The notes under the pieces are model-generated. The model had not been told where the DNA came from. It saw only the letters and a list, made by a program, of their open reading frames with translations, and ran no database searches. This document shows, piece after piece, positions 13,652 through 63,736 of a stretch of DNA of 64,000 bases (within the stretch, counting starts at the first letter, position 1; every line of letters begins with the position of its first letter). This DNA comes from Methanomicrobia archaeon (GTDB lineage: Archaea; Methanobacteriota_B; Thermococci; Methanofastidiosales; NM3). The stretch covers positions 355 through 64,354 of the forward strand of contig JAUVXU010000010.1 of assembly GCA_030603445.1 (NCBI GenBank), written 5' to 3'. The position numbers and the translations under genes are program-made.

Positions 13652-14593
13652 TTAGATGCATTCGCACCCGAGCGCTTCGTTTATATTCTTCATTAACTTT
13701 ATTGCTTTTACAAGCTCGCCGTTAGAGTATATTGGATTTGAAAGCGACGTGGCGTTTGCCATATGCTCCTGCGCTTCCTCGATCATTTCCTAAACTTCTT
13801 CAGGTACCTCTTCTGGCAGGTTTTCAGCAATGCAGTTCCACATGGTGTTTGCATTTGCGAGCTGCGTGTTTGCTATCGGCTTGAAGATGGCGAACAGATT
13901 GATGGGATTACGTGGAACAGCTGGTCCAGCCATTTTAACAAAGAATATCTCACGATCGTTTCCTCCCTCTTCTCCCCACCACGTGAGGTAGGAGTTGCCT
14001 GAGGGGTCTGCTGCTATCTGCGAAGATTCATCAGCATATGAGTTGTCGGTGACCTGTGTGGTGTCGGTGACTGTGTCTGAGGAGTCTACCTTTGCCCAGA
14101 ATATCTCAGCATCGCCATCTTCTCCGTACCATGTGAGGTAGGAGTTGCCTGAGGAGTCGATTGCTATCTGTGGATAGTACTCATGATATGAGTTGGTGGT
14201 GACCTGTACTGTGGTGAAAGCGCCTGAGGAGTCTACCTTTGCCCAGAATATCTCATAGTCATTTCCATCGTGTCCGCGCCATGTGAGGTAGGAGTTGCCT
14301 GAGGAGTCTGCTGCTATCTGCGGATCTTCATCACTATAATCGTTGGTGGTGACCTGTGTGGTATAGGTGACTGTGTCTGAGGAGTCTACCTTTGCCCAGA
14401 ATATCTCACCGTCGTTTCCTCCTTCGTATCCCCTCCATGTGAGGTAGGAGTTGCCTGAGGAGTCTGCTGCTATCTGCGGATCCCTATCAATATAATCGTT
14501 GGTGGTGACCTGTGTGGGTGTGGTCTGGCCGGCAATTGGTGTTATTAATAAAAATGTTATAAGAAAAATAATTATTATAGTTGCTTTTTTCAT
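13652..14593 (-). CDS. secreted protein: 4 beta-propeller-like repeats plus shared C-terminal tail, interrupted by in-frame TAG at 13790-13792
   Basis: Signal peptide MKKATIIIIFL; past the TAG the frame continues EMIEEAQEHMANATSLSNPIYSNGELVKAIKLMKNINEALGCECI*. Confidence 0.8.
13945..14515 (-). repeat. four ~55-aa tandem repeats (QVTTNDY.D.DPQIAADSSGNSYLTW.G...EIFWAKVDSS), last one partial
   Basis: Repeated nucleotide block gtgaggtaggagttgcctgagg occurs four times. Confidence 0.85.
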
Positions 14594-14795
14594 ATTAAAC
14601 TCTCTCCCCTTTTTTGGATTTGTATAATATTAAATAAATGTTTCTGTGAAGAGGGGAATTTTTCTATTTTTATACGAATGAAGAAAAGAATTGGAAAGCA
14701 CGTGTTAGAATTCTAATTTACTTAATTCCATAATTAACTTTCTCATTTTGTAATTATCAATGCTATATTTTTAACACTTTTTTTTATGTGTTTTA
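14590..14795 (-). promoter_or_regulatory. conserved upstream element of tail-family genes (copy 1)
   Basis: Proximal part matches 63733-63885; distal part matches 61350-61500. Confidence 0.65.
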
Positions 14796-14951
14796 CCATG
14801 TGCTCCCACTTGCTGCTTGTCCGTGCTTCTCTTGGTACAAGCACTTGTTCTAATCAAGAAGGCTAAGCACCTCTTGTGCCACGCACTGTGTGACCAGTAT
14901 ATATGCATATACCAATCGAAAACCATATATTCTTTATACTGTATTAAAAAT

Positions 14952-16358
14952 ATGAAGAATTACAAGTTTTGTTCTATTATACTTTTATTATTGATAATAT
15001 TTTCATGCGCCGGATGCATATCAGGTGGAAATGATGAAGGAAATACCACCACAACGCCCACCGAAGCACCTACCACTACAACACCGGCCCCTACTGAGCC
15101 ACCCACTGTTACTCAGCAGCCCACATCGACTGTTCCGCCTACTACCGTTCCGCCGGCACCAGAATTTGTCCACAGCGAATGTTCGACCAATTCTATGAAC
15201 TTTGATGCAGGAAATACCAGATATTACATGTGCAACGCACCAGATAATCCCACTGAAGTATGGAAGGCGGATACTTTAATGATGCAGGGATATATCCTAA
15301 CGGACTATGACAGGGCATATCTTTTTCAAAGCAATTATGGGGATTATGAGGTAAAATGTTACGATGTATACACTGGTGAAAATCTTTGGACCATAACCAC
15401 CCCTTTCATGAATTTTCAAAATGTTTTTTTGAAAGATGAACGGATATACATGTTCCAATTCACTGATGTTGACTCATTGTACTGTTATGATGCAAAGGAT
15501 GGAAAATTCCTTTGGAATTCAGAGAATATCATGGACCTTTATCCAGGTGAAAAGAGATTTCACTTGTCCAGCTTAAACTACTCCGATGGAAAGATACTTG
15601 CAGTGCTAGTTACATTAGCCGATGATATAATAGCTGGGGATGGAAGATGCTTATGTTGCTTTGATTCTAGCAATGGAGAGATATTATGGCATAAGATATT
15701 TGATCAAGATTCATGCTCTCGCCCTGCAATCGAGAATGGGACAGCTTATTTTTCCACCATCTTGCTTGACCAGACATACAATTACAGCACTAACGATGTT
15801 GAGAAGATAATCGGTATTGATATGGACAATGGGAATCAAGTATACGATATATCAAGGGATGAGCACTATTTCAATCAAAGACAAATAATCGTATCTGATG
15901 GAAAGATATATGCCATTGGGCAAAAAAGAGACCTATTTGGCCAGAGGGAAGAGTACAACATGTACCTATTCTGCTTTTCGGCATACTCTGATGATGTCCT
16001 ATGGACATATAAGATAGTGGAGAAGCGGTGGGGCAACCTTACTCTAGGCGAGGACAAGATCTTCATATCCATGCAAGACTATATAATATGTATAGATACC
16101 ACCACGCATGCGGAACTCTGGAGGAAGCAGATAGAATATTATAATGAATGGAATCCGCCGATATACGCCGGAGATAAATTGATAGTATTTATATCACAGA
16201 CAGGGGTAACATCCCAGGTGATGGCCTTGGATCCCGAAACAGGACAGGACTTATGGACAGTGGATCTTGAGGGATTGCAGATAGCGAATGCAGCCTCGTT
16301 CTATAAAAATCTGATGCTAGTGGGTACAGATCTGGGATATCTTTACTGTTTTGAATGA
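14952..16358 (+). CDS. lipoprotein with Thr/Pro linker and PQQ-like beta-propeller
   Basis: MKNYK...AGCI lipobox, TTTPTEAP linker, repeated YDAKDGKFLW-type blades; start moved to 14952. Confidence 0.8.
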   Translation: MKNYKFCSIILLLLIIFSCAGCISGGNDEGNTTTTPTEAPTTTTPAPTEPPTVTQQPTSTVPPTTVPPAPEFVHSECSTNSMNFDAGNTRYYMCNAPDNPTEVWKADTLMMQGYILTDYDRAYLFQSNYGDYEVKCYDVYTGENLWTITTPFMNFQNVFLKDERIYMFQFTDVDSLYCYDAKDGKFLWNSENIMDLYPGEKRFHLSSLNYSDGKILAVLVTLADDIIAGDGRCLCCFDSSNGEILWHKIFDQDSCSRPAIENGTAYFSTILLDQTYNYSTNDVEKIIGIDMDNGNQVYDISRDEHYFNQRQIIVSDGKIYAIGQKRDLFGQREEYNMYLFCFSAYSDDVLWTYKIVEKRWGNLTLGEDKIFISMQDYIICIDTTTHAELWRKQIEYYNEWNPPIYAGDKLIVFISQTGVTSQVMALDPETGQDLWTVDLEGLQIANAASFYKNLMLVGTDLGYLYCFE

Positions 16359-18606: not shown

Positions 18607-18618
18607 GAGGTGTAAAAA

Positions 18619-18855: not shown

Positions 18856-18860
18856 TAGGA

Positions 18861-33336: not shown

Positions 33337-34785
33337 CTACCCTTCGCTCATGTCCTTTTTAGGGCCCTTTCTTCTCCATGCCATAACAGCGTATATTATG
33401 AACATGAGGGTAAGTGATAATGAAGCAAGTGTTACTATAAAGTGGGTATCAGTGATCACAGGCAGCATCTCAAATGCAGTGTAGAATATCCACAAGGAAA
33501 CTGCTATGACAATGATGCCTCCTCCTCCCCACACCAAGTTACGGAAAAATCCAGACCACCTTACCTTCTTTGCAATATCGGTCGTTCCCCCGCTTATTAG
33601 CCCTATGAAGACAAATGGCATCAAGACGCCGGCAGAAAATGATGCAATAAGCACTACACCAAACACTAGATCCCCCTTGTCGGCTATCTGGGTAAGGATG
33701 ACAACTAGTGCAGGGGCAGCACAAGGCAGCTTAACGGCCGAAAATATTATGCCTAAGAATACTGCACCAAGATACCCCTTATCGCCAACAAACTGCTGGA
33801 CCATCTTCTTGGAAAATCCTTTTGTTGATACAGGGAACTCGACTGCCTGAAAAATATAATTGATCAAGTTAAGCCCAAGTATGAATGTTATTATGCTTCC
33901 AAACAAGGACATGTAGAACTTGAAGTTCGTAAGCCGCTGGCCAAGCAAGGCCATGGTAAGTGCAATTGCCGTGTACATTATGACAAGCCCGACGCCAAAT
34001 AGGACCGACTTTCCCATCGCCTCAGAGCGCTTCTTTGATGTTCCCGCAGTATATGCCAATATGAACGACAATACTGCCATAAGACAAGGCGAGAATGATG
34101 AAAAGAAGCCCAATGTAAATGCTACAGAAATAGACCATTTTGTAATATTGGAATAAATATCCGTTCCTCCGGACAACGCATTTTCTATAAGCTCATCAAG
34201 CCTCTCGTACGTTGTCTCCGGATGCTCAACAAATGACTCCCCATTTATCGCAACAGACGGTGTTATGGTAAAGCCGTATGAGCTGAAAATATCCCATCCC
34301 TGTGCAGTGAATACGTCGTATTCCATAACAATTAGCTGCTCGCCATATTTGTCCTTTAGCTGCTGCAAATGGGGCTTAAAATCATCACATGCCTCACATC
34401 CATCTTCATAAAAGTAATCAAGTGTGACGGTGTCTTTTGATGATGTTATAATCTCAATTATTTTCTCCTTGGTGAAGAGTTCCTTGTCAAACTCAAGGAG
34501 CGTGTCACCTATGACAATCGACGGCACCTTTGTAAAGCCGTACGAGCTGTAAATATCCCAACCTTCGCTTGTGAAGACGTCATAGCGGGTGACATTTATC
34601 TTGTCCCCCATTTCCTCCTCAATCTCCAAGAGAATAGGCTTAAAAACGTTGCATTCGTCACATCCTTCCTCATAGAAGAATATCACTTCCACCGTATCAG
34701 AAGCTGCGCCTGTGGTAAGCGGCATCATTGAAAAAAGCACGATTGCACCCAGAATGCTGCATATTATTGCTGTCTTTCGTTTCAT
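33337..34785 (-). CDS. two extracellular thioredoxin domains fused to CcdA/DsbD membrane domain
   Basis: Signal peptide, CDEC and CEAC motifs, FSPCL and LPCAAP. Confidence 0.85.
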   Translation of the reverse strand: MKRKTAIICSILGAIVLFSMMPLTTGAASDTVEVIFFYEEGCDECNVFKPILLEIEEEMGDKINVTRYDVFTSEGWDIYSSYGFTKVPSIVIGDTLLEFDKELFTKEKIIEIITSSKDTVTLDYFYEDGCEACDDFKPHLQQLKDKYGEQLIVMEYDVFTAQGWDIFSSYGFTITPSVAINGESFVEHPETTYERLDELIENALSGGTDIYSNITKWSISVAFTLGFFSSFSPCLMAVLSFILAYTAGTSKKRSEAMGKSVLFGVGLVIMYTAIALTMALLGQRLTNFKFYMSLFGSIITFILGLNLINYIFQAVEFPVSTKGFSKKMVQQFVGDKGYLGAVFLGIIFSAVKLPCAAPALVVILTQIADKGDLVFGVVLIASFSAGVLMPFVFIGLISGGTTDIAKKVRWSGFFRNLVWGGGGIIVIAVSLWIFYTAFEMLPVITDTHFIVTLASLSLTLMFIIYAVMAWRRKGPKKDMSEG

Positions 34786-35909
34786 CGCCTTCTCCTCATT
34801 ACTATTACTACACAAAGCGCCGCAATTATTCCAATAGCGCAATAATATTTGTTTGGAATGCCTTCGGAACTATTTTCTGGTATGTTTATAAAGATTTCTT
34901 TAGTGGCACTATAACACTCGTTGCATCCGCCATAATCTGCATTTGCAAAAAACAATGTATCGCCATAAATTCCATCGTCTAGCTGCACAGGTATTAAGAT
35001 AGATCCCCTTGTCTTTATCTCATCTATCGTTTCATGCAGGCAGGCCTCATCGTTTACATATAATGTGAAAGTTATCTCGCTTGCCTTAATCCCGCCCTCA
35101 TTTTTTATCTCAACTATGATTGAGCGATTACTGTTTAGTATTTCAATCTCTAGTTGCGGGCGATAAGGGCGCACCTGAACCATAAAAGGTATCTTTTCGG
35201 TATATAGCTTGAAGTAGTTGTCATAATACAAAACGTTCAAGTTAAGATAATAGATGCCTGATTCAAGAAACTCTGTGTTAAGGGATATTGTTGCTGTATT
35301 GGTGCTGCCTGGGGCAATAGATAAGAAAGCATCTGGTGTTATCATTCCTTCAATGCTGCCAGATATTGATATCTTAAGGTCCTTTGCACTTCCTGTTCCG
35401 GCATTTGTGAATGAGAAAGGCAACGATGCATTGTTTCCCCCTACCACATCAAAGGTCCTCTCAAAATCGGTCTTTAACTCCGGCACCTTCCTTGTGACAG
35501 ATATAGTGCATGTCTGCACTACACTAAAAGGAAAGCACCCCCCATCACATGTTCCAAGCGTGCCCTCGAACATTATTGGAATATCATACTCTCCGTTAGG
35601 AGTATCAGGCGTCATTTCCAACTGCAGTAGTAGATTTGACCCTTCTCCGCTCGGAAGAATGGGATCTAACATTTCCTCTCCTTTAATAATGTTCACATAC
35701 TTTTTTATGTCCTCATCTATGGCATTGATGTTGATATACACCATGCCATTGTTGCAAGGATTAACTGTTGTATTATCAACAAAAATAGAGAAGGCCACGA
35801 AGTCGCCTGGCGTAACATGCCCCGTATAATCTATGGACATAGTCGGCTCTGTTGTTTCTATGGAAAAAAAGAGCAATAATCCAAGCAAGGCCACAGAATA
35901 TAGCTTCAT
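34782..35909 (-). CDS. secreted Ig-like (COG1361/CARDB-like) protein with C-terminal TM anchor
   Basis: Signal peptide, TNAGTGSAKDL-type Ig strands, TM helix plus RRRR tail. Confidence 0.65.
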   Translation of the reverse strand: MKLYSVALLGLLLFFSIETTEPTMSIDYTGHVTPGDFVAFSIFVDNTTVNPCNNGMVYININAIDEDIKKYVNIIKGEEMLDPILPSGEGSNLLLQLEMTPDTPNGEYDIPIMFEGTLGTCDGGCFPFSVVQTCTISVTRKVPELKTDFERTFDVVGGNNASLPFSFTNAGTGSAKDLKISISGSIEGMITPDAFLSIAPGSTNTATISLNTEFLESGIYYLNLNVLYYDNYFKLYTEKIPFMVQVRPYRPQLEIEILNSNRSIIVEIKNEGGIKASEITFTLYVNDEACLHETIDEIKTRGSILIPVQLDDGIYGDTLFFANADYGGCNECYSATKEIFINIPENSSEGIPNKYYCAIGIIAALCVVIVMRRRR

Positions 35910-36855: not shown

Positions 36856-37503
36856 TTAAAAACCATGCGTGCCCAGAAGAGGGACAAACGCACATGCGCA
36901 ATATACATTGGTGGAGAGAGAACCATCTTTAAGCTTAGTTCCAACAGTAAGCATCTGCAGTCCGCTTCTAGCGCCTACGGGCGCTATTATCTTTCCTCCA
37001 CAAGCCAGCTGCTGTATTAGCGGCTGCGGGAAGTTTGGTGCTGCAGCAGTAATTATGATGCGATCATACGGCGCCCCTTTCTCCCATCCAAGCGTCCCGT
37101 CCCCAAGTATTGTTATGACCTTTTGACCGCAATTTTCTATAATCTGCCTAGTGCGAAGAAACAAAGACTCTATACGCTCGATTGATGTCACAAACCCATC
37201 GCCAACTATATTTGCAATAAGGCATGCATTGTATCCAGAACCTGTGCCTATCTCAAGTACGCGCAGTCCTGGGACAAGATCAGATACTTCCAACATTATT
37301 GCAATCATGGAGGGGGCGGATATTGTCTGCCCTTCGCCGATTGGCAACGGGATGTCATTATAACTTTTATTTTCATACTCTTCTGGCACGAACTTTTCCC
37401 TCGGCACTGATTCGAATGCCTCCTGCACGCGCCTTGAGAGTATGTACCCTCCTGACAGCAGGTAATCTACAAGCTGCCTTCTGGCCTTATCCGGTTCCAT
37501 CAT
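36856..37503 (-). CDS. pcm: protein-L-isoaspartate O-methyltransferase
   Basis: VPREKF, QTISAP, LEIGTGSGY, APYDRI, FVPL. Confidence 0.95.
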   Translation of the reverse strand: MMEPDKARRQLVDYLLSGGYILSRRVQEAFESVPREKFVPEEYENKSYNDIPLPIGEGQTISAPSMIAIMLEVSDLVPGLRVLEIGTGSGYNACLIANIVGDGFVTSIERIESLFLRTRQIIENCGQKVITILGDGTLGWEKGAPYDRIIITAAAPNFPQPLIQQLACGGKIIAPVGARSGLQMLTVGTKLKDGSLSTNVYCACAFVPLLGTHGF

Positions 37504-38053: not shown

Positions 38054-38213
38054 CAATATCACCTTGTATCCAGACAAATTTAAATATTGCTTAAATATCT
38101 TGCTCTGTCCAGGCCGGTTTTGTACATTAAATTAATTCTATATATAATATAACTATACTTGCACAAATAGGTTATCAGAAATAATATCAACAATTCCATT
38201 ATTGTTGAATAAT

Positions 38214-40056: not shown

Positions 40057-40631
40057 ATCAATCTCTCTTCTAGGAGTTCTTTATATTTCTTTGAATCAAT
40101 GATATTCTTTACTAGAAGTTGCTTAGCTATATATTCTTTATTTTTTTCTATCCTCTCTTTCCAATATGAATTTTGAGTATATTTAGGATATGAACGATAT
40201 ATCAATAATAGCAATTCTTCCATACTTACATTGTCATATATTTTTCTAATTAATTTAACACCATTCAATAAATGAGATAAAGGAATACTATTTTTTTGTT
40301 TTATTTTTTTTACTAATTCCAAATATTCATTTTTTCCTTTATTATTGAGATAAATATATCCTCCACTTAATTCGTCATTGGAGTATTCATACACCCAACA
40401 ATCTTCTAGAAATATTGGATTTATTATGGCTTCTTTTACATCTTGAGAAAAGGGACCTTTATAATGTTTAATAAAGTATACAAATTCTTTAATAGAAGGA
40501 TGAAAATTCCATAATAGAAATATTTCTTTTTGTAAATGTAATTGGCTTATTTTTTTATTATCGGCACCAAGTACCAATAAAATTAAGTTTTCCAGTGATT
40601 TTCTCTTTCCTTCTGATTCATCTATACTCAT
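40053..40631 (-). CDS. Panacea/SocA (DUF4065)-like winged-helix protein
   Basis: LHLQKEIFLL...FIKHYKGPFSQDV...ELLLLIYRSYP..T..S. Confidence 0.65.
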   Translation of the reverse strand: MSIDESEGKRKSLENLILLVLGADNKKISQLHLQKEIFLLWNFHPSIKEFVYFIKHYKGPFSQDVKEAIINPIFLEDCWVYEYSNDELSGGYIYLNNKGKNEYLELVKKIKQKNSIPLSHLLNGVKLIRKIYDNVSMEELLLLIYRSYPKYTQNSYWKERIEKNKEYIAKQLLVKNIIDSKKYKELLEERLI

Positions 40632-46059: not shown

Positions 46060-47040
46060 ATGGGTATTAGAAAGCTTGCTTTATTTTTTTCATTTGCAAT
46101 TGTCACTTGCGCCTTGCTTGCAGCCTCGTTTGCACCTATAGCTGCAGAGGTAAGGTCCACAGGGCCACAGGAGATACTCCTGGAAAGCGAACAAAGCATT
46201 ATTGTTGGAGAAAACTACACTTACTATTTAACTCTTGTTAATTTGGACCCCTGCGACAAGCTGCTTTCAAACGATTTCACATGCGTTCCATCGATTGCTG
46301 TAGACATGATACAAATAGACAATGCAACAAATGAAGTGCTCCAGACGATATCACTAGAGCACCTGCATTTTGGTTATCAAGATGTTGATATTCAGTACGA
46401 TGACATAACAATTGTTTCGTTAAATGTCTTAAATATTGCGTTTTTTGAAAACAAGGCAAAAGTTGAAATAGGATACACCAGCACCACGACTGCGGCAGAT
46501 CTCATTGAAATTACCTCAAAGGATGACAACATAAACGCTGTGTTAGGATATAACAACAATACTACTATCTATATTAACAATCCTAGCAAGAACGATATAG
46601 ACGTGTTCTTCTCAGTAGAAAGTGCAGCCTCTTCATCTGTTTTGACAATTAAATGGGGGGGGTCAGAAAAGAGCATTAAAACAGGCAATGAAAGATTAAT
46701 AGTACTGCATCAGGGAAATAATACCCTAACACTCTCATTCATACCAAGAGAAGAAGGGCATCAGGTGCTTTCCTTCTTTGTAAAGGTAGATGATAAAATA
46801 ATCGGGATAGTGCTTCCGGTACTAGTACACCCAGTGGATGATATCTCATCTGATATTATTTTTGCAAATCGTGCCTCATTTGATGACGTTCTAAATGACC
46901 AAAAAATAGTAGGGGACGTTAAGATGGACTCAGTCTATCTCTTGGGTTTCTCCTTCATACTCCTCGTAATGGGTGGCGTCCTCGGATTCGTACATACTTC
47001 CAACGGCGGCTCTTTTGGTTCTATAGATAAGGAAAAATAA
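46060..47040 (+). CDS. secreted, membrane-anchored hypothetical protein
   Basis: Signal peptide, beta-rich body, C-terminal TM helix. Confidence 0.6.
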   Translation: MGIRKLALFFSFAIVTCALLAASFAPIAAEVRSTGPQEILLESEQSIIVGENYTYYLTLVNLDPCDKLLSNDFTCVPSIAVDMIQIDNATNEVLQTISLEHLHFGYQDVDIQYDDITIVSLNVLNIAFFENKAKVEIGYTSTTTAADLIEITSKDDNINAVLGYNNNTTIYINNPSKNDIDVFFSVESAASSSVLTIKWGGSEKSIKTGNERLIVLHQGNNTLTLSFIPREEGHQVLSFFVKVDDKIIGIVLPVLVHPVDDISSDIIFANRASFDDVLNDQKIVGDVKMDSVYLLGFSFILLVMGGVLGFVHTSNGGSFGSIDKEK

Positions 47041-48282
47041 GACCACGATAACACATACAATGGCTATGCCTGCAATAGCGTATAATATCATTCTTTCCTC
47101 CTTATCCTTCTCTATTTGTGCCAGTGCGTCCATCTTTTCTTTATTTAATAATATATAATCGTCACATTGCACAGCCATCGCATCATCATCAAGTGCTACA
47201 AACTTCTCTTTTGCAGATTCTAGGGTAGTTATAGACTGCTCGTAGCTTTCCTGGGAGTAAAGCTGTACGCCATACTCAAATGCGGTGTTTGCCAATATGA
47301 ACTTGTCACAAAGCGCAGATGCGCTGTTGCATTCCTCAACTAGTGATGCATCACTAAGAAGAAGGGCTGCATCGTTGTAAAGTTGCTTTGAGTCGCTGTA
47401 TCTCTTCTCCAAGAACGCTTGCTGTGCCTGGGAATATATCCCAAGTGCATATAGCTGCTCATCGCAAAACTCTATGCTGCCATTTATGGCATCAAGCGTC
47501 TCCTTCTTTGAGGTGTATTCCTTTGCGGCTGTAAAGGAATCCTTGGCCTCCTGCCAGCTCCCTTCCTTAAATGCCTCAAGCGCTGATTCGTAAGTCATAA
47601 AGAAGAAGCAGTTCTTGAGGCGCACTTCTATCTTTATTAAAAGGGATGATACGCCCAACTCACCATATATTACTGCTATATCCGCATAAAGTACGCTTGC
47701 AGAAATGTAATCGCCATCAAAATAGTAGTTCTCGGCTTCCAAGAACTTGGACTGGGCCAGCTTGAACTCGTTGCAGTCACTGATCTTCTCGTTGCAAAGC
47801 GATATTTTCTCATCGTTCTCTGCAATTATGTATATCTCTATTGCCTGAGTGAAGTAGTCTATTGCCATATCAAACTCGCCATCGCTCATCGCTGCAAGGC
47901 CCAAGTTGTACAATTCGTCTCCCTGCACTCCGATGCCTGCTAGCATCTCGTCAATGATTAATCTCATGTTAGAATATGTTATCTTCAGATCACCAGCAAG
48001 CTTTCGCTCATCATTTATAAAAAGAACAGGTATGCCACTGTTGCCATATCTTGAAGTGTAGTCGTTCCATATAGCCTGATTCTCTGAGAGATATATATTA
48101 TACTTGTTAATCTCCACTAAATCGCCGTAATGGTCTTTGATATCATCTAAAACGTCAGAAGTTGCCCTGCAATGGGAACATCCTGGAGAATAAAAGTATA
48201 CTATCTCAATCGGCGCGGCAGCTGTCACTGGAACGAATGTAAGCAATAATAAGACTAATACGATTACGCCACTTTTCTTCAT
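46930..48282 (-). CDS. extracellular thioredoxin plus TPR-like helical repeats, C-terminal TM
   Basis: Signal peptide, YFYSPGCSHC, GIP, helical repeats with paired Cys. Confidence 0.75.
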   Translation of the reverse strand: MKKSGVIVLVLLLLTFVPVTAAAPIEIVYFYSPGCSHCRATSDVLDDIKDHYGDLVEINKYNIYLSENQAIWNDYTSRYGNSGIPVLFINDERKLAGDLKITYSNMRLIIDEMLAGIGVQGDELYNLGLAAMSDGEFDMAIDYFTQAIEIYIIAENDEKISLCNEKISDCNEFKLAQSKFLEAENYYFDGDYISASVLYADIAVIYGELGVSSLLIKIEVRLKNCFFFMTYESALEAFKEGSWQEAKDSFTAAKEYTSKKETLDAINGSIEFCDEQLYALGIYSQAQQAFLEKRYSDSKQLYNDAALLLSDASLVEECNSASALCDKFILANTAFEYGVQLYSQESYEQSITTLESAKEKFVALDDDAMAVQCDDYILLNKEKMDALAQIEKDKEERMILYAIAGIAIVCVIVVLFFLIYRTKRAAVGSMYESEDATHYEEYEGETQEID

Positions 48283-48357: not shown

Positions 48358-50646
48358 TTAAGAAAGATCTGTTATAAGGTCAAGAGCTGCCTTGGAGGTT
48401 CCGGTCCTGTCAGCGCCTGCTACAACAAGCACGTCCTTTCCGAGTGAGTACACATCCTCATAGAGTTTGTACTCTCCCTCTGAAGTATCCCATTCCTCAA
48501 ATGTTGTGATGCCTAGGTCAACAAGCTCCTGCACGATGCTGTTTGCAACAGGCCCGCCTATAAGCACGAGGTTGTACTCGCTCTTTAGGTCTGGTTCTGC
48601 TTCAACGCCAATATCGAGCTTCACAAGCTTTGTTGGATCTATGTCAACGTAGACTGTTGTCACGATTGGGGCAAGCTGTTCTATCTTCGAGAAAGTGATG
48701 TCACCATCTATTCTGTAGTCTGTGTGTATTGCATCCACAACTTGCAGTGTGAAGTAGTTGTTACCATCTAGATCATCTAAGCATACTGTCAATGCATCGC
48801 TGCACATTCCAGCAAGTTCCACTGGAGTTGCGAGCCATAGTTCGAGTGCTGGTCTGCATATTGGCTGTGTAAGTCCTGCATCTAGAGTTAGTGTCCATTC
48901 ATCAGTGGTAGAGTTGTATGTTGCTACGTAGTAATCCTTGAGCATGGCAGTCAGTTCATAATATTCAGCTGTACCTATATCTGGGAAGTCAGAAGCTACG
49001 TAATCAAACGCATCGTAGATAATAAGCTTGTCTGCTGCATCGAAGTTTGGATTTCCTTCAGACCAGAGTGCTAAAGCGTTGTCCAAATCCACAACGTCTA
49101 TATCGTTGTTTGGTATAATGTCAAGATACCAGTCAAGCTCCTCGCCGCCGCAGTTGGATACAACATATGGCATGTAAAGTTCAGACGTGTATGTGTCGCA
49201 TGGTCCTGGGTATATGCGCTCTTTTATGCATCCATAGTCCTCTAGTGTGTAAGCGTGGAACTCAACAACGTAGCTGCCTGATGCACCTATCAAGGTCTTC
49301 ACAAAGTTGACAGCAAATACGACTTCTAACGTTCCGCATGTATCTTCCTTGAATGCTATTACACTGTTTTCCTCGTTGTCTTCATCACCATCTCCGCCTG
49401 AAGGCACTTGGGACGTGTATGTGTTAATAACAGTTATGTAGTCGTAAGCTTCACCGCTTGGGTCTGTTATCGTGACATAAGCCTTGTTCTCGTATATTCC
49501 GAGATCATTAATTGTGAGCGTGTATCCGCCGTATTCCTTTGATTCGCCAACGTGGAGTTTTTCCTCTACAAACCACTTTGGAGTTCCGTAGAACATATAG
49601 TCCACACCATCCACATTTGTACCAAAGCTTATGGCATCGTAGTGGTCGCCAAGGAAGTACACGTCGCAGGTGTCACAGTACAAGTCAATATCTACTGGCA
49701 AAATTGGTTCGCATATGCCGTATGCCTCTGAGTCTGGGCCGATAATCGCACTCCATGTAACCTTGCTTAAACTTTCTATTCCGGTTACTATTGTCCTGTA
49801 TTCCATACCGCCTACAGGGTCGCATATCTCATCGTTCCAAGCTGGAGTTCCCCAGTAGTGGCGCGGGTAGATGTTAGGGTAGGTCTGACACTCGTCAAGT
49901 GAAGTTACTGGAGCTATTGGATCCCAAGTTGGATATGTAACTGAATCTGGGTTCTCAAAAGGACCAACAATATCTGCTACTCCGTCGTCAGTGATATCTA
50001 CATCCCATAGCCCTTCCTGATCACATGATGCTGCGCAGGTAACGCAAAGGTCCTGCGTGCATAGCACATCCCTGATCGAGAAGTCCACTGTAACTGACTC
50101 ATATGAGCATCCTGTGTCTACCATGACCTCAGCTGTGCATCCGAAGTTTGTGTTATGGTCTATGTAAATGTCATAGTCCCACCATGGGGCCTGAACATCC
50201 ATTCCTCCCTGTCCATCCGGATCTACGAAAGATGTTGCAGCAGAGCAAACGTATGGAAGAACTACCCAGGATTCGGGCACTCCAAGTCCAGGTATTACGC
50301 CCTCGTGTATCCTGAAGTCATCAAAGTATGCATCTATTGAGAAAATGCTTGAATTGGGCATGTAGTTGTCTACTTCTGCCTCTTCGTCATATATCACAGA
50401 ATATATGTTCTGATCTTCAGTTTCTTCAGTATAATAAGCCATGCTTCCTATCTGTGCCGATATCCAGGATGCTGAAACGACATCTTCTGCTGCAGCGTTG
50501 GAACCAACTACAATAAGACATGTTGGTTCACCATCGCTTGGATTGATGAAGAAGTCCTTGTTCAAATCTGTTGCAGCACCTACTGCTCCAACAAGTGTTG
50601 AACCTAGCAACAGCGCGCCTGAAATGGCTACACCTATTTTTTTCAT
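48358..50646 (-). CDS. S-layer protein (paralog 2)
   Basis: MKKIG signal, IVVGSNAAAEDVVSA N-domain, NLVLIGGPVAN / VAGADRTGT C-domain. Confidence 0.9.
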   Translation of the reverse strand: MKKIGVAISGALLLGSTLVGAVGAATDLNKDFFINPSDGEPTCLIVVGSNAAAEDVVSASWISAQIGSMAYYTEETEDQNIYSVIYDEEAEVDNYMPNSSIFSIDAYFDDFRIHEGVIPGLGVPESWVVLPYVCSAATSFVDPDGQGGMDVQAPWWDYDIYIDHNTNFGCTAEVMVDTGCSYESVTVDFSIRDVLCTQDLCVTCAASCDQEGLWDVDITDDGVADIVGPFENPDSVTYPTWDPIAPVTSLDECQTYPNIYPRHYWGTPAWNDEICDPVGGMEYRTIVTGIESLSKVTWSAIIGPDSEAYGICEPILPVDIDLYCDTCDVYFLGDHYDAISFGTNVDGVDYMFYGTPKWFVEEKLHVGESKEYGGYTLTINDLGIYENKAYVTITDPSGEAYDYITVINTYTSQVPSGGDGDEDNEENSVIAFKEDTCGTLEVVFAVNFVKTLIGASGSYVVEFHAYTLEDYGCIKERIYPGPCDTYTSELYMPYVVSNCGGEELDWYLDIIPNNDIDVVDLDNALALWSEGNPNFDAADKLIIYDAFDYVASDFPDIGTAEYYELTAMLKDYYVATYNSTTDEWTLTLDAGLTQPICRPALELWLATPVELAGMCSDALTVCLDDLDGNNYFTLQVVDAIHTDYRIDGDITFSKIEQLAPIVTTVYVDIDPTKLVKLDIGVEAEPDLKSEYNLVLIGGPVANSIVQELVDLGITTFEEWDTSEGEYKLYEDVYSLGKDVLVVAGADRTGTSKAALDLITDLS

Positions 50647-50847
50647 GTTCACGTTATTCACCTTTGATTTTTTTTTATTTCTACAATATTATGTAGACTC
50701 TGTATTAGTATTGCTCATCAATAGTATATAAATGTATCGGTAATATCCATTAGATAAGCTATATAATCCACTTAAAAACCAACTAGAACAACGTTGATAG
50801 AACAGGATTGAAAAGAATAGTTCTAATAGAATAGTGTATAAAATTAA

Positions 50848-50886: not shown

Positions 50887-53106
50887 TTACATCTCAGAGA
50901 TCAGTGCTAGGGCAGCGACTGCTGTTGCGTCCCTGTCCATACCTGCTACGATTAGGACATCCTTGCCCACAGCGTACACATCCTCAATGAGCTCAAACTC
51001 TCCTTCTGAAGTGTCCCACTTCTCGAAGGTTGTGTATTCGAGGTCAACGAGTTCCTGCACTATTGCGTTTGCAACTGGTCCGCCTATCAGCACGAGGTTG
51101 TACTCCTGCTTCATGTCGGTCGTGATGTTCTCGTCAAGCTTGACAAGTGACTCTGGTTCGATGTCGACGTATACCTTGGTTACTGTTGGGTCGAGTGCGA
51201 CCTTCCTGTAGATGTCAATTGCACCGTCTATTGCGTAGTCTGTGTGGTCTGTGTCGGTCACCTTGAGGGTGAAGTAGTTGTCTCCATCACAATCCGCAAG
51301 TTCTACTATAAGCTCATCGTCGCAAAGGCCAGCGAGTTCCACTGGGGTTGCAAGCCATAGTTCTAGAATTGGCCTGCATATCCGATCAGCTACTGTTATA
51401 ACATCCGCGCCATCCCTAGCGAGATTATTGTAGAAATTTCCTAAGTAAGCAAAGAAGTCGTCGTCTGCAACAGTTACACCTACAATATCGCCATATATAT
51501 TAAGATCGTCTGTTCTATCATAGTTTGGATTTCCTTCATCCCAAAGTGCTATCAGGTTGTCTTTGTCTATGACAGCAGTCCCATCGGCGTTCCAATCTAC
51601 ATTATCATTTGGTATGATATCAAAGTACCACTCGAGGTCGCCTACCTTGATTGCTGGCTCTATTGCTGGATCGCATGGTCCTGGGTATACCTGCTCGCGT
51701 AGGACTCCGTAGTCCTCTAGTGTGTAAGCGTGGTATTCCACCATGTAGTTTCCTGCTGCGCCGATCATCGTCTTAACAAAGTTGACAGCAAATACAACTT
51801 CTCCTGCAGGTTCTCCTTCTAGTCCTATTAAATCAATCTGACCTTCCAACTCATCTCCGCAAAGCGAATATACATTAAATGAGTCTAGAACAAAAGCAAT
51901 GCAGTCGTTCTCTTCGTTGCCACTCGTGTCGCCAGGTATTCCTCCATCCCACATGTCTCCTTCTCCTTGTGAAGGTACTTGGGATGTGTAGGTGTCTATG
52001 ACTACCATGTAGTGGTTGTCATTTCCATCTGGGTCCGTGATTATGATGTCTGCCTTGTTCTCGTAGATTCCGAGATCGTTGATGGTAAGTGTCCATCCGT
52101 TGAAGTACTCCTTTGACTCTCCGACGTATAGCTTCTCCTCAATAAACCACTTTGGAGTTCCATAGAACATGTAGTCGTATCCATCTGCATCAGTGTCAAA
52201 GGACAATGCATCGTAGTTCTCTCCAAGGAAAAACACATCACATGACTCGCAGTACAGTTGTACTTCTTCTAGACCGTTATCATCGCATGTTCCATATGCC
52301 TCTGATTCTGGACCGACAACTGCCCACCAAGTGACAAAGTCAAGATTCTCAACACCAGTCACGATTGTCCGGTACTCTATACCGCCTAGAGGGTCGCATG
52401 GGTCTTGTGGGTTAGTGTATGGGTTTGGTACTCCCCAGTAGTGGCGTGGGTAGATGTTAGGGTAGGTCTCGCATTCATTCAACACAGGTGCGGTGCCTTT
52501 AACCTGTACACAAGCAGCAGAGCAAGCTACGCAAAGCTCTGCAGAGCACTCGAGGTTTCTTAATGAGAAGTCTACCGTTATTGCTTCATATGAACAGAGC
52601 GTATCTACAAGGAAGTTCTCGTCTGCTGCGTTAAATCCCGTCCATGGGTCAACGTAGACATCGTAGTCCCACAACATATCATCTGTTCCACAGTCGTAAG
52701 GTAATACCACCCAAGACTCTGCATCAACTGCAGTTGCCGATACAGCCTGGAAATCATTGAAAAATGCATCTCCATCTAATCCATAAACGCCAACATCTAT
52801 GTAGTTGATCACTTTCTCTTCAAAAATGCTTCCGGTTCCATCATAGGTCACACCAGGGAAGTCCCAGTTCTCTGTGACGTCTTCGTAATAAGCCATTGTT
52901 CCGACCTTTGCTGACACGAATGCTGCAGAAACAACATCCGCCGCAGCTGCGCCGGATCCAACGACGATCAAACAGTTGTTAAGTCCGTTTGTCTCGTCGA
53001 TGAAAAAAGTACTGTCTAGCGTATCGGCGGAAGCAACTGCTCCTGCAAATGTTGCACCAAGCAAAGCTGCGCCTGCTAAAACTGCTCCAACTCTTTTCAA
53101 CTTCAT
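50887..53106 (-). CDS. S-layer protein (paralog 1)
   Basis: MKLKRVGA signal, IVVGSGAAAADVVSA, NLVLIGGPVAN, VAGMDRDAT. Confidence 0.9.
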   Translation of the reverse strand: MKLKRVGAVLAGAALLGATFAGAVASADTLDSTFFIDETNGLNNCLIVVGSGAAAADVVSAAFVSAKVGTMAYYEDVTENWDFPGVTYDGTGSIFEEKVINYIDVGVYGLDGDAFFNDFQAVSATAVDAESWVVLPYDCGTDDMLWDYDVYVDPWTGFNAADENFLVDTLCSYEAITVDFSLRNLECSAELCVACSAACVQVKGTAPVLNECETYPNIYPRHYWGVPNPYTNPQDPCDPLGGIEYRTIVTGVENLDFVTWWAVVGPESEAYGTCDDNGLEEVQLYCESCDVFFLGENYDALSFDTDADGYDYMFYGTPKWFIEEKLYVGESKEYFNGWTLTINDLGIYENKADIIITDPDGNDNHYMVVIDTYTSQVPSQGEGDMWDGGIPGDTSGNEENDCIAFVLDSFNVYSLCGDELEGQIDLIGLEGEPAGEVVFAVNFVKTMIGAAGNYMVEYHAYTLEDYGVLREQVYPGPCDPAIEPAIKVGDLEWYFDIIPNDNVDWNADGTAVIDKDNLIALWDEGNPNYDRTDDLNIYGDIVGVTVADDDFFAYLGNFYNNLARDGADVITVADRICRPILELWLATPVELAGLCDDELIVELADCDGDNYFTLKVTDTDHTDYAIDGAIDIYRKVALDPTVTKVYVDIEPESLVKLDENITTDMKQEYNLVLIGGPVANAIVQELVDLEYTTFEKWDTSEGEFELIEDVYAVGKDVLIVAGMDRDATAVAALALISEM

Positions 53107-55564: not shown

Positions 55565-55947
55565 ATGAGAAAAGAAGTTGAAAACTGGTGGAAACAGGCA
55601 AATAGAGACCTGTTAAGTGCAGAAAATGCATTCAAATCGAAAGATTATTATGTGGCAGCATTTCTTTGTCAACAAAGCGTAGAGAAAGGGTTAAAAGCTT
55701 TATATATTAAAAAAAGAAAAGAATCTCCGGGAGCAGTGCATTCTTTAATTTATCTAGGTAAAAACACTAAAATCCTAACAAATTTTACAGTGCATTAAGA
55801 AGATTGAATCCTGATTTTGTAATAACAAGATATCCTGACGCTGCGCATGGCCTTCCTTATGATCTTTATGATGAAGAAATAGCAAAAGAGAGAATAGATC
55901 TAACTAAAAAAGTGATGGAATGGATAAAAGAGAAGTTAGAGAAATAG
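55565..55947 (+). pseudogene. HEPN-domain protein, 1-nt frameshift near 55773
   Basis: WWKQANRDL...QQSVEKGLKA...HSL, continuing in another frame as PNKFYSALRRLNPDFVITRYPDA...EWIKEKLEK*. Confidence 0.8.
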
Positions 55948-56231
55948 AAGATTTTTTGAATAATCTGAGGAGTGCGTACGCCCCAGAAAAGATAATACTA
56001 TTTGGCTCAAGAGCTAGAGGGGACAATTTGAAGCAAAGCGATTATGATTTGATGGTGGTGAGCAGGAAGTTTGAAAATATCCATTTTCTTGAAAGAATAT
56101 CCAAACTACTGGAACTCTGGACCTATGATGTTGATGTAGATATACTCCCATATACCCCTGAGGAGTTTGAAGATAAGAAGAAGGAGATTGGCATAGTCTC
56201 GCAAGCCGTGAAAGAAGGGATTGAAGTATAA
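55920..56231 (+). CDS. minimal nucleotidyltransferase (MNT antitoxin)
   Basis: LFGSRARG...SDYDLMVV...VDILPYTPEE. Confidence 0.9.
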   Translation: MDKREVREIEDFLNNLRSAYAPEKIILFGSRARGDNLKQSDYDLMVVSRKFENIHFLERISKLLELWTYDVDVDILPYTPEEFEDKKKEIGIVSQAVKEGIEV

Positions 56232-59997: not shown

Positions 59998-60136
59998 AAA
60001 AGTGTGTAATCCCATATAATGAACCAGATTGAAATTCGTATAGATGCTTTATTTCATGAACGCTATGGAAAAGTAAATAATTCAAACAAAATTGAATATT
60101 CTAAAAAATAGAGAAATAAAAAAGAATAGGGAAGCG

Positions 60137-61204
60137 TTAGATGCATTCGCACCCTAGCGCTTCGCTTATATTCTTCATTAGTTTTATTGCTTTTACAAGC
60201 TCGCCGTTAGAGTATATCGGATTTGAAAGAGATGTTGCGTTTGCCATATGTGCTTGCGCTTCATCTATCATTTCCTGGACGTCTTCTGGTATCTCTTCTG
60301 GCAGGCATGTTACAATACATGTCCAAAGCTCATTGGCAGTATTATATTGTGCTAAAGCAAGTGGTTTTGTTATTGCAAGGATGCTGACATTATTCTGAGG
60401 ATAATCCTGGGGCCTTAAAGGAGGGTCTTCCACAGAGATAAATGACATCGCTTCAATTAATACAAAGGTATCAAGTGCATCATCCGATGCATCAGCTATA
60501 GCTAGTTTCATATGATTGACAAGTCCCGGATTGACCGGTGCCACGGCGTTCAGTATATATGAAAAACCATCCATTCCTGTGTCATAAGGGGTATTTGTGT
60601 CGCTAGGATCATTGTTTCGGTAATATTGGCTGTTTACATACAAATTAATGTTGTTTATTGATACAGGAAGCCCATTTGAAAATACTGCATAATTAACGTC
60701 ATTTACAAAAAAACCGAATGGATCATTATATTCGCCAACATATTCATTATATTCCTCAGAACCAAACACATATCTTAGGACCACATAAGGATGCTCAGGT
60801 ATGAAATCAAATTCAAGCACGGTGGCATCGTAAGATACCTCTGGTGCAATGATTGTGTTTAGGTCTGCATCGCCTGGCAGTCCATTTTCTTGTGTTGCAT
60901 CGTCATCTATATTTGGGCCAATTATATGTGCAATATTTCCAGAAGATAACACCAGACCACCGTCAAATCCGAATATGGATACGCCACCAGAAAAAAATCC
61001 TGCTGAAGAATCAATGCCAATATAACTGATGTTTGCAATACCTGTAACGCCGGACCCAATGCCAACTAAGGAATTTACCATAGCAGTTGGCGTGACCCCG
61101 TCCCCCATATCCTGAGTAGTGATCGTCGCAGCAGAAACGGGGGTTATCACAAACAATGATAACATGAAAATGGATATTATAAATATACTTACTTCTCTTT
61201 TCAT
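60137..61204 (-). CDS. secreted choice-of-anchor L-like protein with shared C-terminal tail
   Basis: GLVLSSG, DATVLEFDF, YVFGSEEYNEY, YNDPFGFF, KLAIAD; tail ends ...EALGCECI. Confidence 0.8.
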   Translation of the reverse strand: MKREVSIFIISIFMLSLFVITPVSAATITTQDMGDGVTPTAMVNSLVGIGSGVTGIANISYIGIDSSAGFFSGGVSIFGFDGGLVLSSGNIAHIIGPNIDDDATQENGLPGDADLNTIIAPEVSYDATVLEFDFIPEHPYVVLRYVFGSEEYNEYVGEYNDPFGFFVNDVNYAVFSNGLPVSINNINLYVNSQYYRNNDPSDTNTPYDTGMDGFSYILNAVAPVNPGLVNHMKLAIADASDDALDTFVLIEAMSFISVEDPPLRPQDYPQNNVSILAITKPLALAQYNTANELWTCIVTCLPEEIPEDVQEMIDEAQAHMANATSLSNPIYSNGELVKAIKLMKNISEALGCECI

Positions 61205-61349: not shown

Positions 61350-61500
61350 ATTCTAACTTACTCCATTCCATAATCAACTTTCTCATTTTGTATTTATGAT
61401 ATTAATTTTTTCCATCCACCTTTTATTTAACTCTAGAGTTAATTTCTTGACTTTATAATTATAATACTGGCTTTTTAACACTTCTTTTCACGTGTTTTGT
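61350..61500 (-). promoter_or_regulatory. conserved upstream element of tail-family genes (distal part, copy 2)
   Basis: attccataatcaactttctcattttgta and tttttaacactt...gtgtttt match 14725-14795. Confidence 0.55.
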
Positions 61501-61555
61501 CATATTAATCTGTTAAAAAATAGAGAATTAGAAAAGAAAGAAAAGTAGAGCTAGA

Positions 61556-63736
61556 TCAGTTGCATTCGCATCCGAGTGCTTCGCTTATACTTTCCATTAG
61601 TTTTATTGCTTTTACAAGCTCGCCGTTAGAGTATATGGGGTTTGAAAGAGATGCTGCATTTGCCATATGCACCTGCGCTTGCCCAATCATTTCCTGGACG
61701 TCTTCCGGTATCTCTTCTGGCAGGTTTTCAGCGATGCAATTCCATATTGTGTTTGCCTGAATCAGATGACAGTTCACTAGTGGCTTGAATATTAGTATAG
61801 ATACAGCTGTTGCATCGGTATGCGAAGCCTCATCAACGCCCATGTCAAATCCCTCTCCCAAAGGCCTTACGTCTCCTTCCATGTCTGTGTAGACCCCTGC
61901 ATCCGTTCCCGTATCGATGCACGGGGAGCCTTTCTGAAGATGGAAATCGCCAGCTGCCGCATCAACGAACAGTGGGTCGGTGTCTATATTGCCTTCTCCG
62001 GTGTAACCTCCCTCCACATCGGAGTAAGTGACATTTGGAGAAGATGTGGTGTTGTGAATTTCATTGGGCGCATCTCCCCACAGGATGCAGTTGGTGATTG
62101 TTGGGGAAGAGGAGTACTTCGAGTTCATTCCTCCGCCGTTAAAAGCTGTATTGTTGCTGAAGGTGCAGTTGGCGAGGGTTGGGGAAGAGTGATCGTTGTA
62201 CATTCCTCCTCCTTCAACAGTGGCTGTATTGCCGCTGAAGGTGCAGTTGGCAAAGGTTGGGGAAGAGTATTCCTCGTTGTACATTCCTCCACCATCAGAA
62301 TTGGCTGTATTGTTGTTGAAGGTGCAGTTGGCGAGGGTTGGGGAAGAGTGATCGTTGTACATTCCTCCGCCGTTGGAGGCTGTATTTGAGCTGAAGGTGC
62401 AGTTGGTAAAGGTTGGGGAAGAATACCAGCTGTTGTACATTCCTCCACCTTTGTAGGCTGTATTGCCGCTGAAGGTGCAGTTGGCAAAGGTTGGGGAAGT
62501 GGAGTAATTATACATTCCTCCGCCACTAATGAAAGTGGCTGTATTGCCGCTGAATGTGCAGTTGGTGAGGGTTAAGGAAGGAGAACAGTCGTTGTACATT
62601 CCTCCGCCGTAATCATTTGCTATATTGCTGCTGAAGGTGCAGTTGGTGAGGGTTGGGGAGGAGGCCCAGTTATTGTACATTCCGGCGCCAAGAGTGGCTG
62701 TGTTGCCGCTGAAGGTGCAGTTGGTGAGGGTTGGGGAGGAGGGGTAGTTCATCATTCCTCCGCCGCAGGATGTAGCCACATTGTCGCTGAAGGTGCAGTT
62801 GGTGAGGGTTGGGGAGGAGCCCCTGTTGTGCATTCCTCCGCCATCGGAAGTGGCTGTATTGCCGGTGAAGGTGCAGTCGGTGAGGGTCGGGGAAGAGTTT
62901 TCGTTGTGCATTCCAGCGCCGTCATGAGTGGCTGTATTGTTGTTGAAGGTGCAGTTGGTGAGGGTTGAGGGTGAGTCGTGGTTGTACATTCCGGCGCCAT
63001 GGGCAGCTGCTGTATTGCCGGTGAAGGTGCAGTCGGTGAGGGTCGGGGATGAAGAGTCGCTGTACATTCCTCCTCCGGAATGATTGGATGTATTGTTGTT
63101 GAATGTGCAGTTTGTGAGGGTTGGGGAGGAGCCCCTGTAATTGTACATTCCTCCACCATCGGAAGTGGCTGTATTGTTGTTGAAGGTGCAGTTGGTGAGG
63201 GTCGGGAAAGAGTTTTCGTTGTACATTCCAGCGCCATCGACAGTAGCTGTATTGCCGCTGAATGTGCAGTTGGTGAGGGTCGGGGAGGAGTCCCAGTTGT
63301 ACATTCCTCCGCCGGCAGCAGCTATATTGTAGCTGAAGGTGCAGTTGGTAATTGTTGTGGATGAGCCACTGAAGTTGTACATTCCTCCTCCGCCGGCAGC
63401 ATCTAATCCGTTGGTTATGGTAAAACCGCTTAGCACTGTCGTGCTGCCTACTCCACTAGCTTTCACCACGGTATCGATTCCGCCACCGTTTATGGTGGTG
63501 GAAGCCTCGCCATCTCCTATAAGCGCCACTCCGTCCTTGAGCGTGATATTCTCGGTGTACGTTCCTGCATGCACATAGATTGTATCTCCACTAGAAGCTA
63601 CATCTATTGCAGCTTGGATAGCCCCAGGGGGGTCAATACTATATACATGGTAGTCTGCTGCACTCACGGTATTGACTGCAGATAATAAAGAAAACAAAAA
63701 CATGATTGCTATAATTAGAACTTTAATTTTTTTCAT
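61556..63736 (-). CDS. secreted parallel beta-helix repeat protein (choice-of-anchor Q-like end) with shared C-terminal tail
   Basis: IQAAID...GTYTE, ~17 GGGMYN..SSPTLTNCTF..N repeats, DPLFVD..DFHL..SPCID..DMG; tail ends ...EALGCECN. Confidence 0.85.
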   Translation of the reverse strand: MKKIKVLIIAIMFLFSLLSAVNTVSAADYHVYSIDPPGAIQAAIDVASSGDTIYVHAGTYTENITLKDGVALIGDGEASTTINGGGIDTVVKASGVGSTTVLSGFTITNGLDAAGGGGMYNFSGSSTTITNCTFSYNIAAAGGGMYNWDSSPTLTNCTFSGNTATVDGAGMYNENSFPTLTNCTFNNNTATSDGGGMYNYRGSSPTLTNCTFNNNTSNHSGGGMYSDSSSPTLTDCTFTGNTAAAHGAGMYNHDSPSTLTNCTFNNNTATHDGAGMHNENSSPTLTDCTFTGNTATSDGGGMHNRGSSPTLTNCTFSDNVATSCGGGMMNYPSSPTLTNCTFSGNTATLGAGMYNNWASSPTLTNCTFSSNIANDYGGGMYNDCSPSLTLTNCTFSGNTATFISGGGMYNYSTSPTFANCTFSGNTAYKGGGMYNSWYSSPTFTNCTFSSNTASNGGGMYNDHSSPTLANCTFNNNTANSDGGGMYNEEYSSPTFANCTFSGNTATVEGGGMYNDHSSPTLANCTFSNNTAFNGGGMNSKYSSSPTITNCILWGDAPNEIHNTTSSPNVTYSDVEGGYTGEGNIDTDPLFVDAAAGDFHLQKGSPCIDTGTDAGVYTDMEGDVRPLGEGFDMGVDEASHTDATAVSILIFKPLVNCHLIQANTIWNCIAENLPEEIPEDVQEMIGQAQVHMANAASLSNPIYSNGELVKAIKLMESISEALGCECN
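62090..63400 (-). repeat. ~17 tandem ~75-bp beta-helix repeats
   Basis: Recurrent gaaggtgcagttggtgagggt and gtacattcctcc units. Confidence 0.9.

Follow-up and report, generated by a model that had tools for sequence, protein, structure and literature searches.

In the stretch of archaeal DNA analysed here (64,000 nucleotides of contig JAUVXU010000010.1, hereafter the window), three genes for secreted proteins with unrelated bodies share a C-terminal tail, and this tail is a member of a previously undescribed domain family. The family comprises a module of about 75–82 residues, modelled as an up-down-up bundle of three helices, that is carried by exported proteins and is apparently unannotated in Pfam and NCBIfam. 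With a probability of roughly 0.45, we favour the view that the tail is a non-covalent docking or retention module. The three genes (g1, g2 and g3) and the features of their tails, including a block of 35 base pairs (bp) shared by all of them, are as follows; lengths are in amino acids (aa).

13790..14593, reverse strand: g1 as read under translation table 11, with a signal peptide, four propeller-type repeats (SBBP, PF06739, 4.2e-12) and the first 38 tail residues
13652..13789, reverse strand: remainder of the g1 tail after an in-frame TAG, 45 conserved codons and a TAA stop in the same frame
60137..61204, reverse strand: g2, a 355-aa secreted protein with a signal peptide, a choice-of-anchor L domain, a Pro-rich linker and the tail
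60137..60391, reverse strand: g2 tail, 84 aa plus stop, predicted to form a bundle of three helices, with two Cys in the first helix and CEC at the C-terminus
61556..63736, reverse strand: g3, a secreted protein of 726 aa with a right-handed beta-helix, a choice-of-anchor Q domain and the tail
61556..61807, reverse strand: g3 tail, 83 aa plus stop
13698-13732, 60183-60217 and 61602-61636: the 35-bp block, identical in all three tails, which encodes part of the loop-2/helix-3 motif

The original prediction, made from the sequence alone, had described the three bodies as a propeller, a choice-of-anchor L-like protein and a beta-helix, and library matches (PF06739, NF038133 and PF13229, respectively) bore these labels out; signal peptides are present in all three genes, in keeping with the claim that the passengers are secreted. 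In g2, the choice-of-anchor L model NF038133 matched over positions 3–219 of 219 (5.8e-61; 205.7 bits against a cut-off of 27), a membership that concerns the passenger and not the tail. The match covers residues 59–272 of a 372-aa open reading frame (ORF) with a TTG start, or about 42–255 of the 355-aa g2 protein, whose start at 61204 is also that of database protein P0151, likewise 355 aa long and with 100% identity to the aligned tail query. The g3 body matched Beta_helix (PF13229, 1.1e-65) and, at residues 597–634, the choice-of-anchor Q model NF041518, such that the choice-of-anchor domains of both g2 and g3 sit directly upstream of the tail. When the bodies upstream of the tail were compared by blastp, only the signal-peptide regions of g1 and g2 matched one another (E 4e-4), with nothing else below E 8, and the claim that the bodies are unrelated therefore stands.

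A profile of the three window tails, searched against 1.84 billion cluster representatives, matched 148 representatives at E ≤ 1e-3, 94 of them at E ≤ 1e-10; the tail is thus not confined to one recent duplication. In a local re-search, 143 of the 148 had the tail no more than 12 residues from the C-terminus. Of the five exceptions, P0139 is a repeat protein with eukaryote-type domains that we regard as spurious, P0116 and P0144 look broken inside the tail, and a chagasin-type domain (PF09394), an inhibitor of cysteine proteases, comes after the tail in P0071 and P0126. Every representative other than the spurious one holds a single tail stretch. A word-indexed search with the tail alignment returned 114 longer proteins, and a scan of species-representative genomes found three tail loci (L001–L003) in two archaeal metagenome-assembled genomes (MAGs), where the passengers are of propeller and beta-helix type and the tails end in DFDCECD, ELNCYYD and DCGCHLG. 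Organism names accompany 6 of the 122 search rows (8 + 114), all of them archaeal MAGs labelled as Methanofastidiosia, ‘Methanomicrobia archaeon’ or ‘Euryarchaeota archaeon’, and on these few named records the family is apparently archaeal. Operationally, we define a member by a match to the ~70-column profile at the C-terminus, behind a signal-peptide-bearing extracellular passenger; g2 and g3 fit this definition in full, g1 only if its in-frame TAG is read through.

Comparison of the tails alone with Pfam (E ≤ 10) and NCBIfam (E ≤ 1) yielded no matching family. When 32 members of the alignment were compared singly with both libraries, the matches were scattered and non-significant, the commonest being HAAS (6 of 32, best E 0.096), and no Pfam model lay over the tail in any of 115 scanned representatives. 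The tail is not covered in a newer Pfam release either, in which 37 of the 114 tail-bearing proteins are without any precomputed domain. The best PDB match by sequence profile had E 0.5, none of 419 listed Foldseek matches to the PDB reached E ≤ 0.001, and the best score in the ESM Atlas, 0.83, was below the meaningful level. Literature on choice-of-anchor proteins, on Methanofastidiosa surface proteins and on archaeal three-helix C-terminal domains contained no description of the tail domain, which is weak evidence of absence. The original prediction had named three outcomes as fatal to it, namely that the tail should match a known domain, occur mainly in cytoplasmic proteins or exist as three copies only, and none of these was found.

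The tail had been proposed to be helical, and structure prediction agrees. For the g2 tail (87-aa query, 32-sequence alignment), AlphaFold2 returned helices at model residues 7–32, 39–55 and 61–82, with a predicted local distance difference test score (pLDDT) of 90.7 and a predicted template modelling score of 0.79. The same three helices recur in a model of full-length g2, in which the tail has a pLDDT of 95–98; the passenger, with two close homologues only in its alignment, has a pLDDT below 50, and the placement of tail versus body is unreadable. Generic three-helix bundles (PDB 2pmr and 4fzp, and SCIN-B) share the up-down-up topology, with query-normalised template modelling scores of 0.62–0.67 and a root-mean-square deviation of about 2 Å over 67–73 columns, though at E values of at least 0.46 and 10–12% identity no homology to the tail is shown. 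Conservation is found in a Pro at the N-boundary (91% of sequences), which lies within an F-x-P motif; in an L-P and the acidic loop that comes after it, which joins helices 1 and 2 (L-P-[ED]-[ED]-x-P-x-[DE]); in Q..H..NA at the end of helix 2; and in N-P-[IV]-Y-A-[NS]-G-E-L..KA across loop 2 and the start of helix 3.

Passengers were surveyed with Pfam on the 115 of 148 representatives that are at least 150 aa long. Those of Beta_helix/NosD type are the most frequent, and the others include PMP repeats, DUF11, PKD, Big_1, cadherin-like Ig, LTD, SBP_bac_5, NlpC/P60, InhA-MAM, chagasin and peptidase families C1, C11, C14 and S8; the spurious P0139 apart, no cytoplasmic-type family was found among these 115. 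The recurrence of the tail on unrelated passenger types, first noticed on three genes, is thereby extended to diverse extracellular passengers. By a crude hydropathy rule, 63 of the 107 representatives of at least 200 aa have signal-peptide-like N-termini, and most of the other 44 begin inside repeats or without an initiator Met, as expected of fragments from short contigs. A transmembrane-like segment in the last 100 aa was seen in none of the 147 non-spurious representatives, which together with the lack of NCBIfam or Pfam matches on the tail upholds the claim that the tail has no transmembrane helix and no PGF or LPXTG motif. Three proteins, P0053, P0063 and P0114, consist of little beyond a signal peptide and the tail. 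Because the tail occurs alone in these and internally in P0071 and P0126, it acts as an autonomous folded unit and not as a peptide signal of the terminus. Passengers of papain-like, caspase-like, clostripain-like and subtilase type are found in the family alongside chagasin, and may represent a protease/inhibitor set sharing one module.

The cysteines of the tail, which the original prediction took for its signature (the ending GCEC), have a different distribution from the one that this would lead us to expect, and they are not the defining or docking feature. Tails in the family end in GCEC, CGC, CECEC, ITCPL or NCYYD, and about half are without Cys (...LSKL, ...LAALLA); since Cys is missing from so many members, a function common to the whole family cannot, judging from the aligned sequences, depend on it. 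Among the 133 representatives in which helix 1 is present, 62 have Cys both in helix 1 and at the C-terminus, 65 have them at neither place and 6 at only one of the two, a coupling for which Fisher's test gives p 2e-30 when relatedness is ignored. A single helix-1 Cys combined with two terminal ones is the commonest pattern (19 representatives), and a 2+2+1 pattern occurs in 13. On the tail tree, groups without Cys occupy two or more distinct positions. One has the Cys-rich ITCPL group as its sister (support 100/99), and another belongs to the opposite half. In the model, helices 1 and 3 would both end at the same pole of the bundle. Because the helix-1 and C-terminal Cys come and go together, and because of this same-pole topology, the simplest reading is that paired Cys may form an intradomain disulfide or metal staple used by some lineages, as opposed to an anchor. 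We also considered the CxC as a lipidation-type motif and rejected this, as the C-terminal Cys covary with those of helix 1 and half of the family lacks them.

Near Cys-containing surface genes, the window also encodes two thiol-redox proteins that are exported or membrane-bound:

33337-34842, reverse strand: DsbD_TM membrane domain fused to thioredoxin-like domains
46930-48282, reverse strand: thioredoxin/glutaredoxin-like protein with a signal peptide, TPR repeats and a hydrophobic C-terminal end

These two genes suggest extracytoplasmic disulfide handling, which would fit Cys-stapled tails.

Compared with one another by tblastn within the window, the tails match at E 1e-30 to 6e-35, and no fourth copy was found in the 64 kb. 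Their alignment has 84 columns, 52 of them invariant, with 71–73% identity to g2. The tails had been described as near-identical, which is true of the last 45 residues (84–93% identical among the three copies) and not of the remainder: nucleotide identity is uneven, at 84–90% over the last 45 codons (90% between g1 and g2 over the 45 codons that follow the TAG of g1) and 58–77% over the preceding 34. The 35-bp block, an element of the original prediction, was recovered at exactly the coordinates given above and is the longest run identical in all three. Similarity between g1 and g2 continues for ~40 nucleotides past the stop codon, into a T-rich 3' flank (13600-13655 and 60085-60140), which hints at a shared unit that includes the terminator region, and at duplication or conversion of a tail-plus-terminator cassette at the DNA level.

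The high identity of the last 45 codons, the 35-bp run and the shared flank are what might be expected if the tail were no more than a local oddity, whose three copies came from a single recent duplication or gene conversion and had no wider meaning. Against this stand the 148 family representatives elsewhere and the fact that each window tail has a closer orthologue in relatives, on the same type of passenger (g1–P0149 91%, g3–P0002 91% and g2–P0001 86%, the last a starred clade of the tree), together with 16–19 synonymous and 18–21 non-synonymous codon differences, out of 79, between any pair of window tails. We consider the local explanation refuted on these grounds, with next to no probability left to it. 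Because of the synonymous differences and the closer orthologues, comparison of the sequences indicates that the window tails are old paralogues under purifying selection and not the products of one recent duplication; the same evidence speaks against a recent origin of these three by the shuffling of passenger cassettes that had been envisaged. Local gene conversion may have contributed to the strong similarity of the last 45 codons and the 3' flank. Over longer times, domain shuffling is evident from the many architectures in which the tail is found. In one MAG, the tail of a propeller protein (L001) and that of a beta-helix protein (L003) belong to different halves of the tree, a placement that hints at such long-term shuffling, and in the window lineage all three tails belong to one tree group; the deep split has support of 92/94 and is drawn open.

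The g1 gene was first described as one open gene (13652-14593), and this proved to be incorrect: a TAG in frame at 13790-13792 breaks it, at the position of a CAG (Gln) in g2 and g3. Since TAG terminates 11 of the 53 window genes, it is an ordinary stop here. For the same reason, TAG as a sense codon in g1, through pyrrolysine or read-through, was rejected as the default, a question judged on the 64 kb of the window, in which no suppressor-type tRNA for TAG was found. In a relative, the orthologue P0149 is full-length (549 aa), with Gln at the TAG position and about nine repeats compared with four in g1. The orthologous propeller proteins of L001 (531 aa) and L002 (523 aa) also have some nine repeats, and their tails are unbroken. 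The protein database lists the pieces of g1 as two ORFs, P0084 (267 aa) and P0007 (44 aa). The simplest account of g1 is that of a copy that has been shortened and carries a nonsense codon. Its translated product would be without helices 2 and 3 of the tail, and the gene is probably decaying or pseudogene-like in this window, though the 45 codons past the stop are intact.

If the tail is a docking or retention module, the bundle, which forms the very end of Sec-exported proteins and follows a short Pro-rich linker, would hold different passengers (beta-helix proteins, propellers and proteases) on a common envelope component or on each other. It would fill the place that is taken elsewhere, on ‘choice-of-anchor’ proteins, by PGF-CTERM, LPXTG or type IX secretion system (T9SS) tails, and paired Cys would stabilise the bundle outside the cell as an internal disulfide or metal staple. 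We favour docking because the tail directly follows choice-of-anchor L and Q domains and because of the breadth of its passengers; its occurrence alone and internally points to a module that binds, not to a peptide signal at the terminus. The L and Q domains presumably follow the same naming convention as choice-of-anchor type A. In a preprint on the latter (bioRxiv 10.1101/2023.03.06.531300), the term marks surface proteins with alternative C-terminal anchors.

Several points weigh against docking, or at least temper it. It is hard to see why a pure anchor would also be secreted on its own, and no partner for the tail emerged. Nor was a conserved receptor gene seen among the neighbours in the window and at the three loci, where inspection was by eye only and the locus neighbours were not scanned against family libraries. 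The coupling statistic for the cysteines disregards relatedness, and with few named records bacterial members of the family are possible. The S-layer is a candidate partner, as the original prediction had suggested; a complex prediction that paired a window S-layer protein (two-paralogue alignment) with the tail alignment gave no answer (score 0.00) and speaks neither for nor against this. A more far-reaching form of the docking idea, which we offer as possible though doubtful, would make the tail the ‘plug’ half of an archaeal surface-display system functionally like cohesin–dockerin or S-layer homology (SLH) domains, wherein a single receptor in the envelope of Methanofastidiosia and related Euryarchaeota, be it an S-layer protein, the glycan on that protein or a scaffold anchored in the membrane, would bind dozens of different exported enzymes and adhesins, with redox-sensitive Cys staples tuning stability in some lineages.

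The tail bundles could instead pair with each other, perhaps via an odd free Cys in the Cys-bearing subfamilies, and give rise to extracellular homo- or hetero-oligomers and not to envelope ties. Very similar tails do occur within single genome stretches (three in the 64 kb, and three listed matches whose longest contigs have the same length, 57,198 bases), the number of Cys is odd in many tails, and stand-alone tails could serve as caps or competitors. However, half of the family has no Cys, and the conserved polar residues (N13, Q39, H41, N44, N50 and Y53 of the profile) would, according to the model, cluster at one pole and in the loops and not along a helix face, such that we consider self-association unlikely. 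Export, sorting or maturation is a further role to be weighed, in which a machinery devoted to the folded domain would recognise it, after which the domain would be removed or processed, as with a T9SS C-terminal domain (CTD) or a C-terminal propeptide. The strict C-terminal position (143 of 148), the attachment of ~80 aa to very diverse cargo including proteases, as in the architecture of T9SS cargo, and the F-x-P at the N-boundary (Pro in 91%), which could mark a processing site, are all compatible with such a signal. We nevertheless think it improbable, as the tail is also found internally before chagasin (P0071 and P0126) and alone behind a signal peptide, is predicted to be helical and not a T9SS-like beta-sandwich, and has no candidate machinery gene that we could see beside the tail genes in the window or at L001–L003.

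We would likewise give a low probability to an accessory domain that binds a ligand (carbohydrate, metal or thiol) and brings its passengers to an environmental substrate or mineral rather than to the cell. The conserved acidic loop and a pole of His, Asn and Tyr could form a binding site, in many members the CxC adjoins the helix-1 Cys, and the passengers are for the most part proteases and beta-helices resembling polysaccharide lyases; the uranyl-binding protein 4fzp is also among the best Foldseek neighbours, at a non-significant E 0.46. However, no structural or sequence match to binding modules was significant, and with Cys absent in half of the family a Cys-based site is not the shared function.

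As a docking module, the tail would have its nearest functional counterparts in bacterial SLH domains, dockerins and the T9SS CTD, though it is not a member of the SLH, dockerin, T9SS CTD or PGF-CTERM families, because the requisite profile match, fold class or hydrophobic segment is lacking. Dockerins are C-terminal three-helix modules of ~70 aa that dock diverse secreted enzymes on a scaffold, and the concept of C-terminal helical docking is the same as the one proposed here. Pfam Dockerin is not, however, among the tail matches at E ≤ 10 or the weak per-member matches, no duplicated calcium-binding loop pattern is visible in the tail alignment, and no cohesin-like partner has been identified. 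The T9SS CTD (Por secretion tail) of Bacteroidota resembles the tail in being a folded C-terminal domain of ~80 aa on diverse cargo, including beta-helix proteins and proteases, that often follows choice-of-anchor domains. It is, though, a beta-sandwich recognised by outer-membrane machinery, whereas the tail is archaeal, all-helical in the AlphaFold2 model and without a Pfam or NCBIfam match, and also occurs internally or alone.

Among archaeal devices, the nearest is the PGF-CTERM/archaeosortase A signal, a known C-terminal means of fixing exported proteins, those of the S-layer among them, to the cell surface. It consists of a short motif and a transmembrane helix, which is cleaved, with lipid linkage (PMC7157517). 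The tail differs in having no hydrophobic segment: no transmembrane-like window was found in it, NCBIfam gave no match on the tails at E ≤ 1, and the window tails end in G-C-E-C-x. LPXTG/sortase signals can be set aside similarly, both the motif and the hydrophobic segment being absent and NCBIfam again giving no match. The likeness to bacterial SLH domains is that of small helical terminal modules on many unrelated exported proteins with a non-covalent hold on the envelope, the last being what we propose for the tail. SLH domains work as trimers of helix-loop-helix units that bind a peptidoglycan-linked polymer (PMC6081394). The archaeon has no such peptidoglycan-linked polymer, and the archaeal tail is one bundle per protein, a single stretch in place of the usual three tandem copies, with no Pfam match to SLH.

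For archaea whose envelope consists only of a membrane and an S-layer, few mechanisms of surface retention are known to us (transmembrane anchors, lipoboxes and archaeosortase signals). If docking is correct, the tail would add a new non-covalent device, a compact helical module present in more than 100 protein clusters and on many passenger types, as well as a handle for a receptor search by pull-down or co-occurrence and a possible small display tag for archaeal systems. The tail profile is ready for use in annotating ‘hypothetical’ surface proteins. Should the tail prove to be only an oligomerisation or stabilising domain, it would still be a new domain family worth a Pfam entry, of modest wider interest.

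The gene content of the window is archaeal, with an A-type ATPase operon, HMG-CoA reductase, geranylgeranyl reductase and Kae1/Bud32, and its content of guanine and cytosine is 41.6%; we treat its source as an archaeon of the class Methanofastidiosia, uncultured methyl-reducing methanogens of digesters and sediments. This assignment follows from the ATPase A subunit, which shares 72–77% identity with proteins named as Candidatus Methanofastidiosia/Methanofastidiosa and about 68% with Methanoperedens, the next named group. Its remaining features of note are listed here.

48358-50661 and 50887-53106, reverse strand: tandem paralogous S-layer genes of Methanococcus type (TIGR01564)
14817-16358, forward strand: PQQ/BamB-like beta-propeller protein, 513 aa as called, adjoining g1
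38214-40631, reverse strand: three consecutive ORFs (420, 198 and 192 aa) with no Pfam match
37487-38077: CPxCG zinc-finger protein, adjoining the three Pfam-less ORFs
55920-56231, forward strand: small nucleotidyltransferase (NTP_transf_2/Polbeta), 103 aa

The two S-layer proteins, of 767 and 739 aa, are 58% identical and contain 20 and 18 Cys, many of which are conserved between them. The propeller protein beside g1 also has 18 Cys, with a Thr/Pro-rich linker after a hydrophobic N-terminal segment and without the tail, and is probably another surface protein. Nucleotidyltransferases of the NTP_transf_2/Polbeta kind found at 55920-56231 are often the MNT half of MNT-HEPN pairs.

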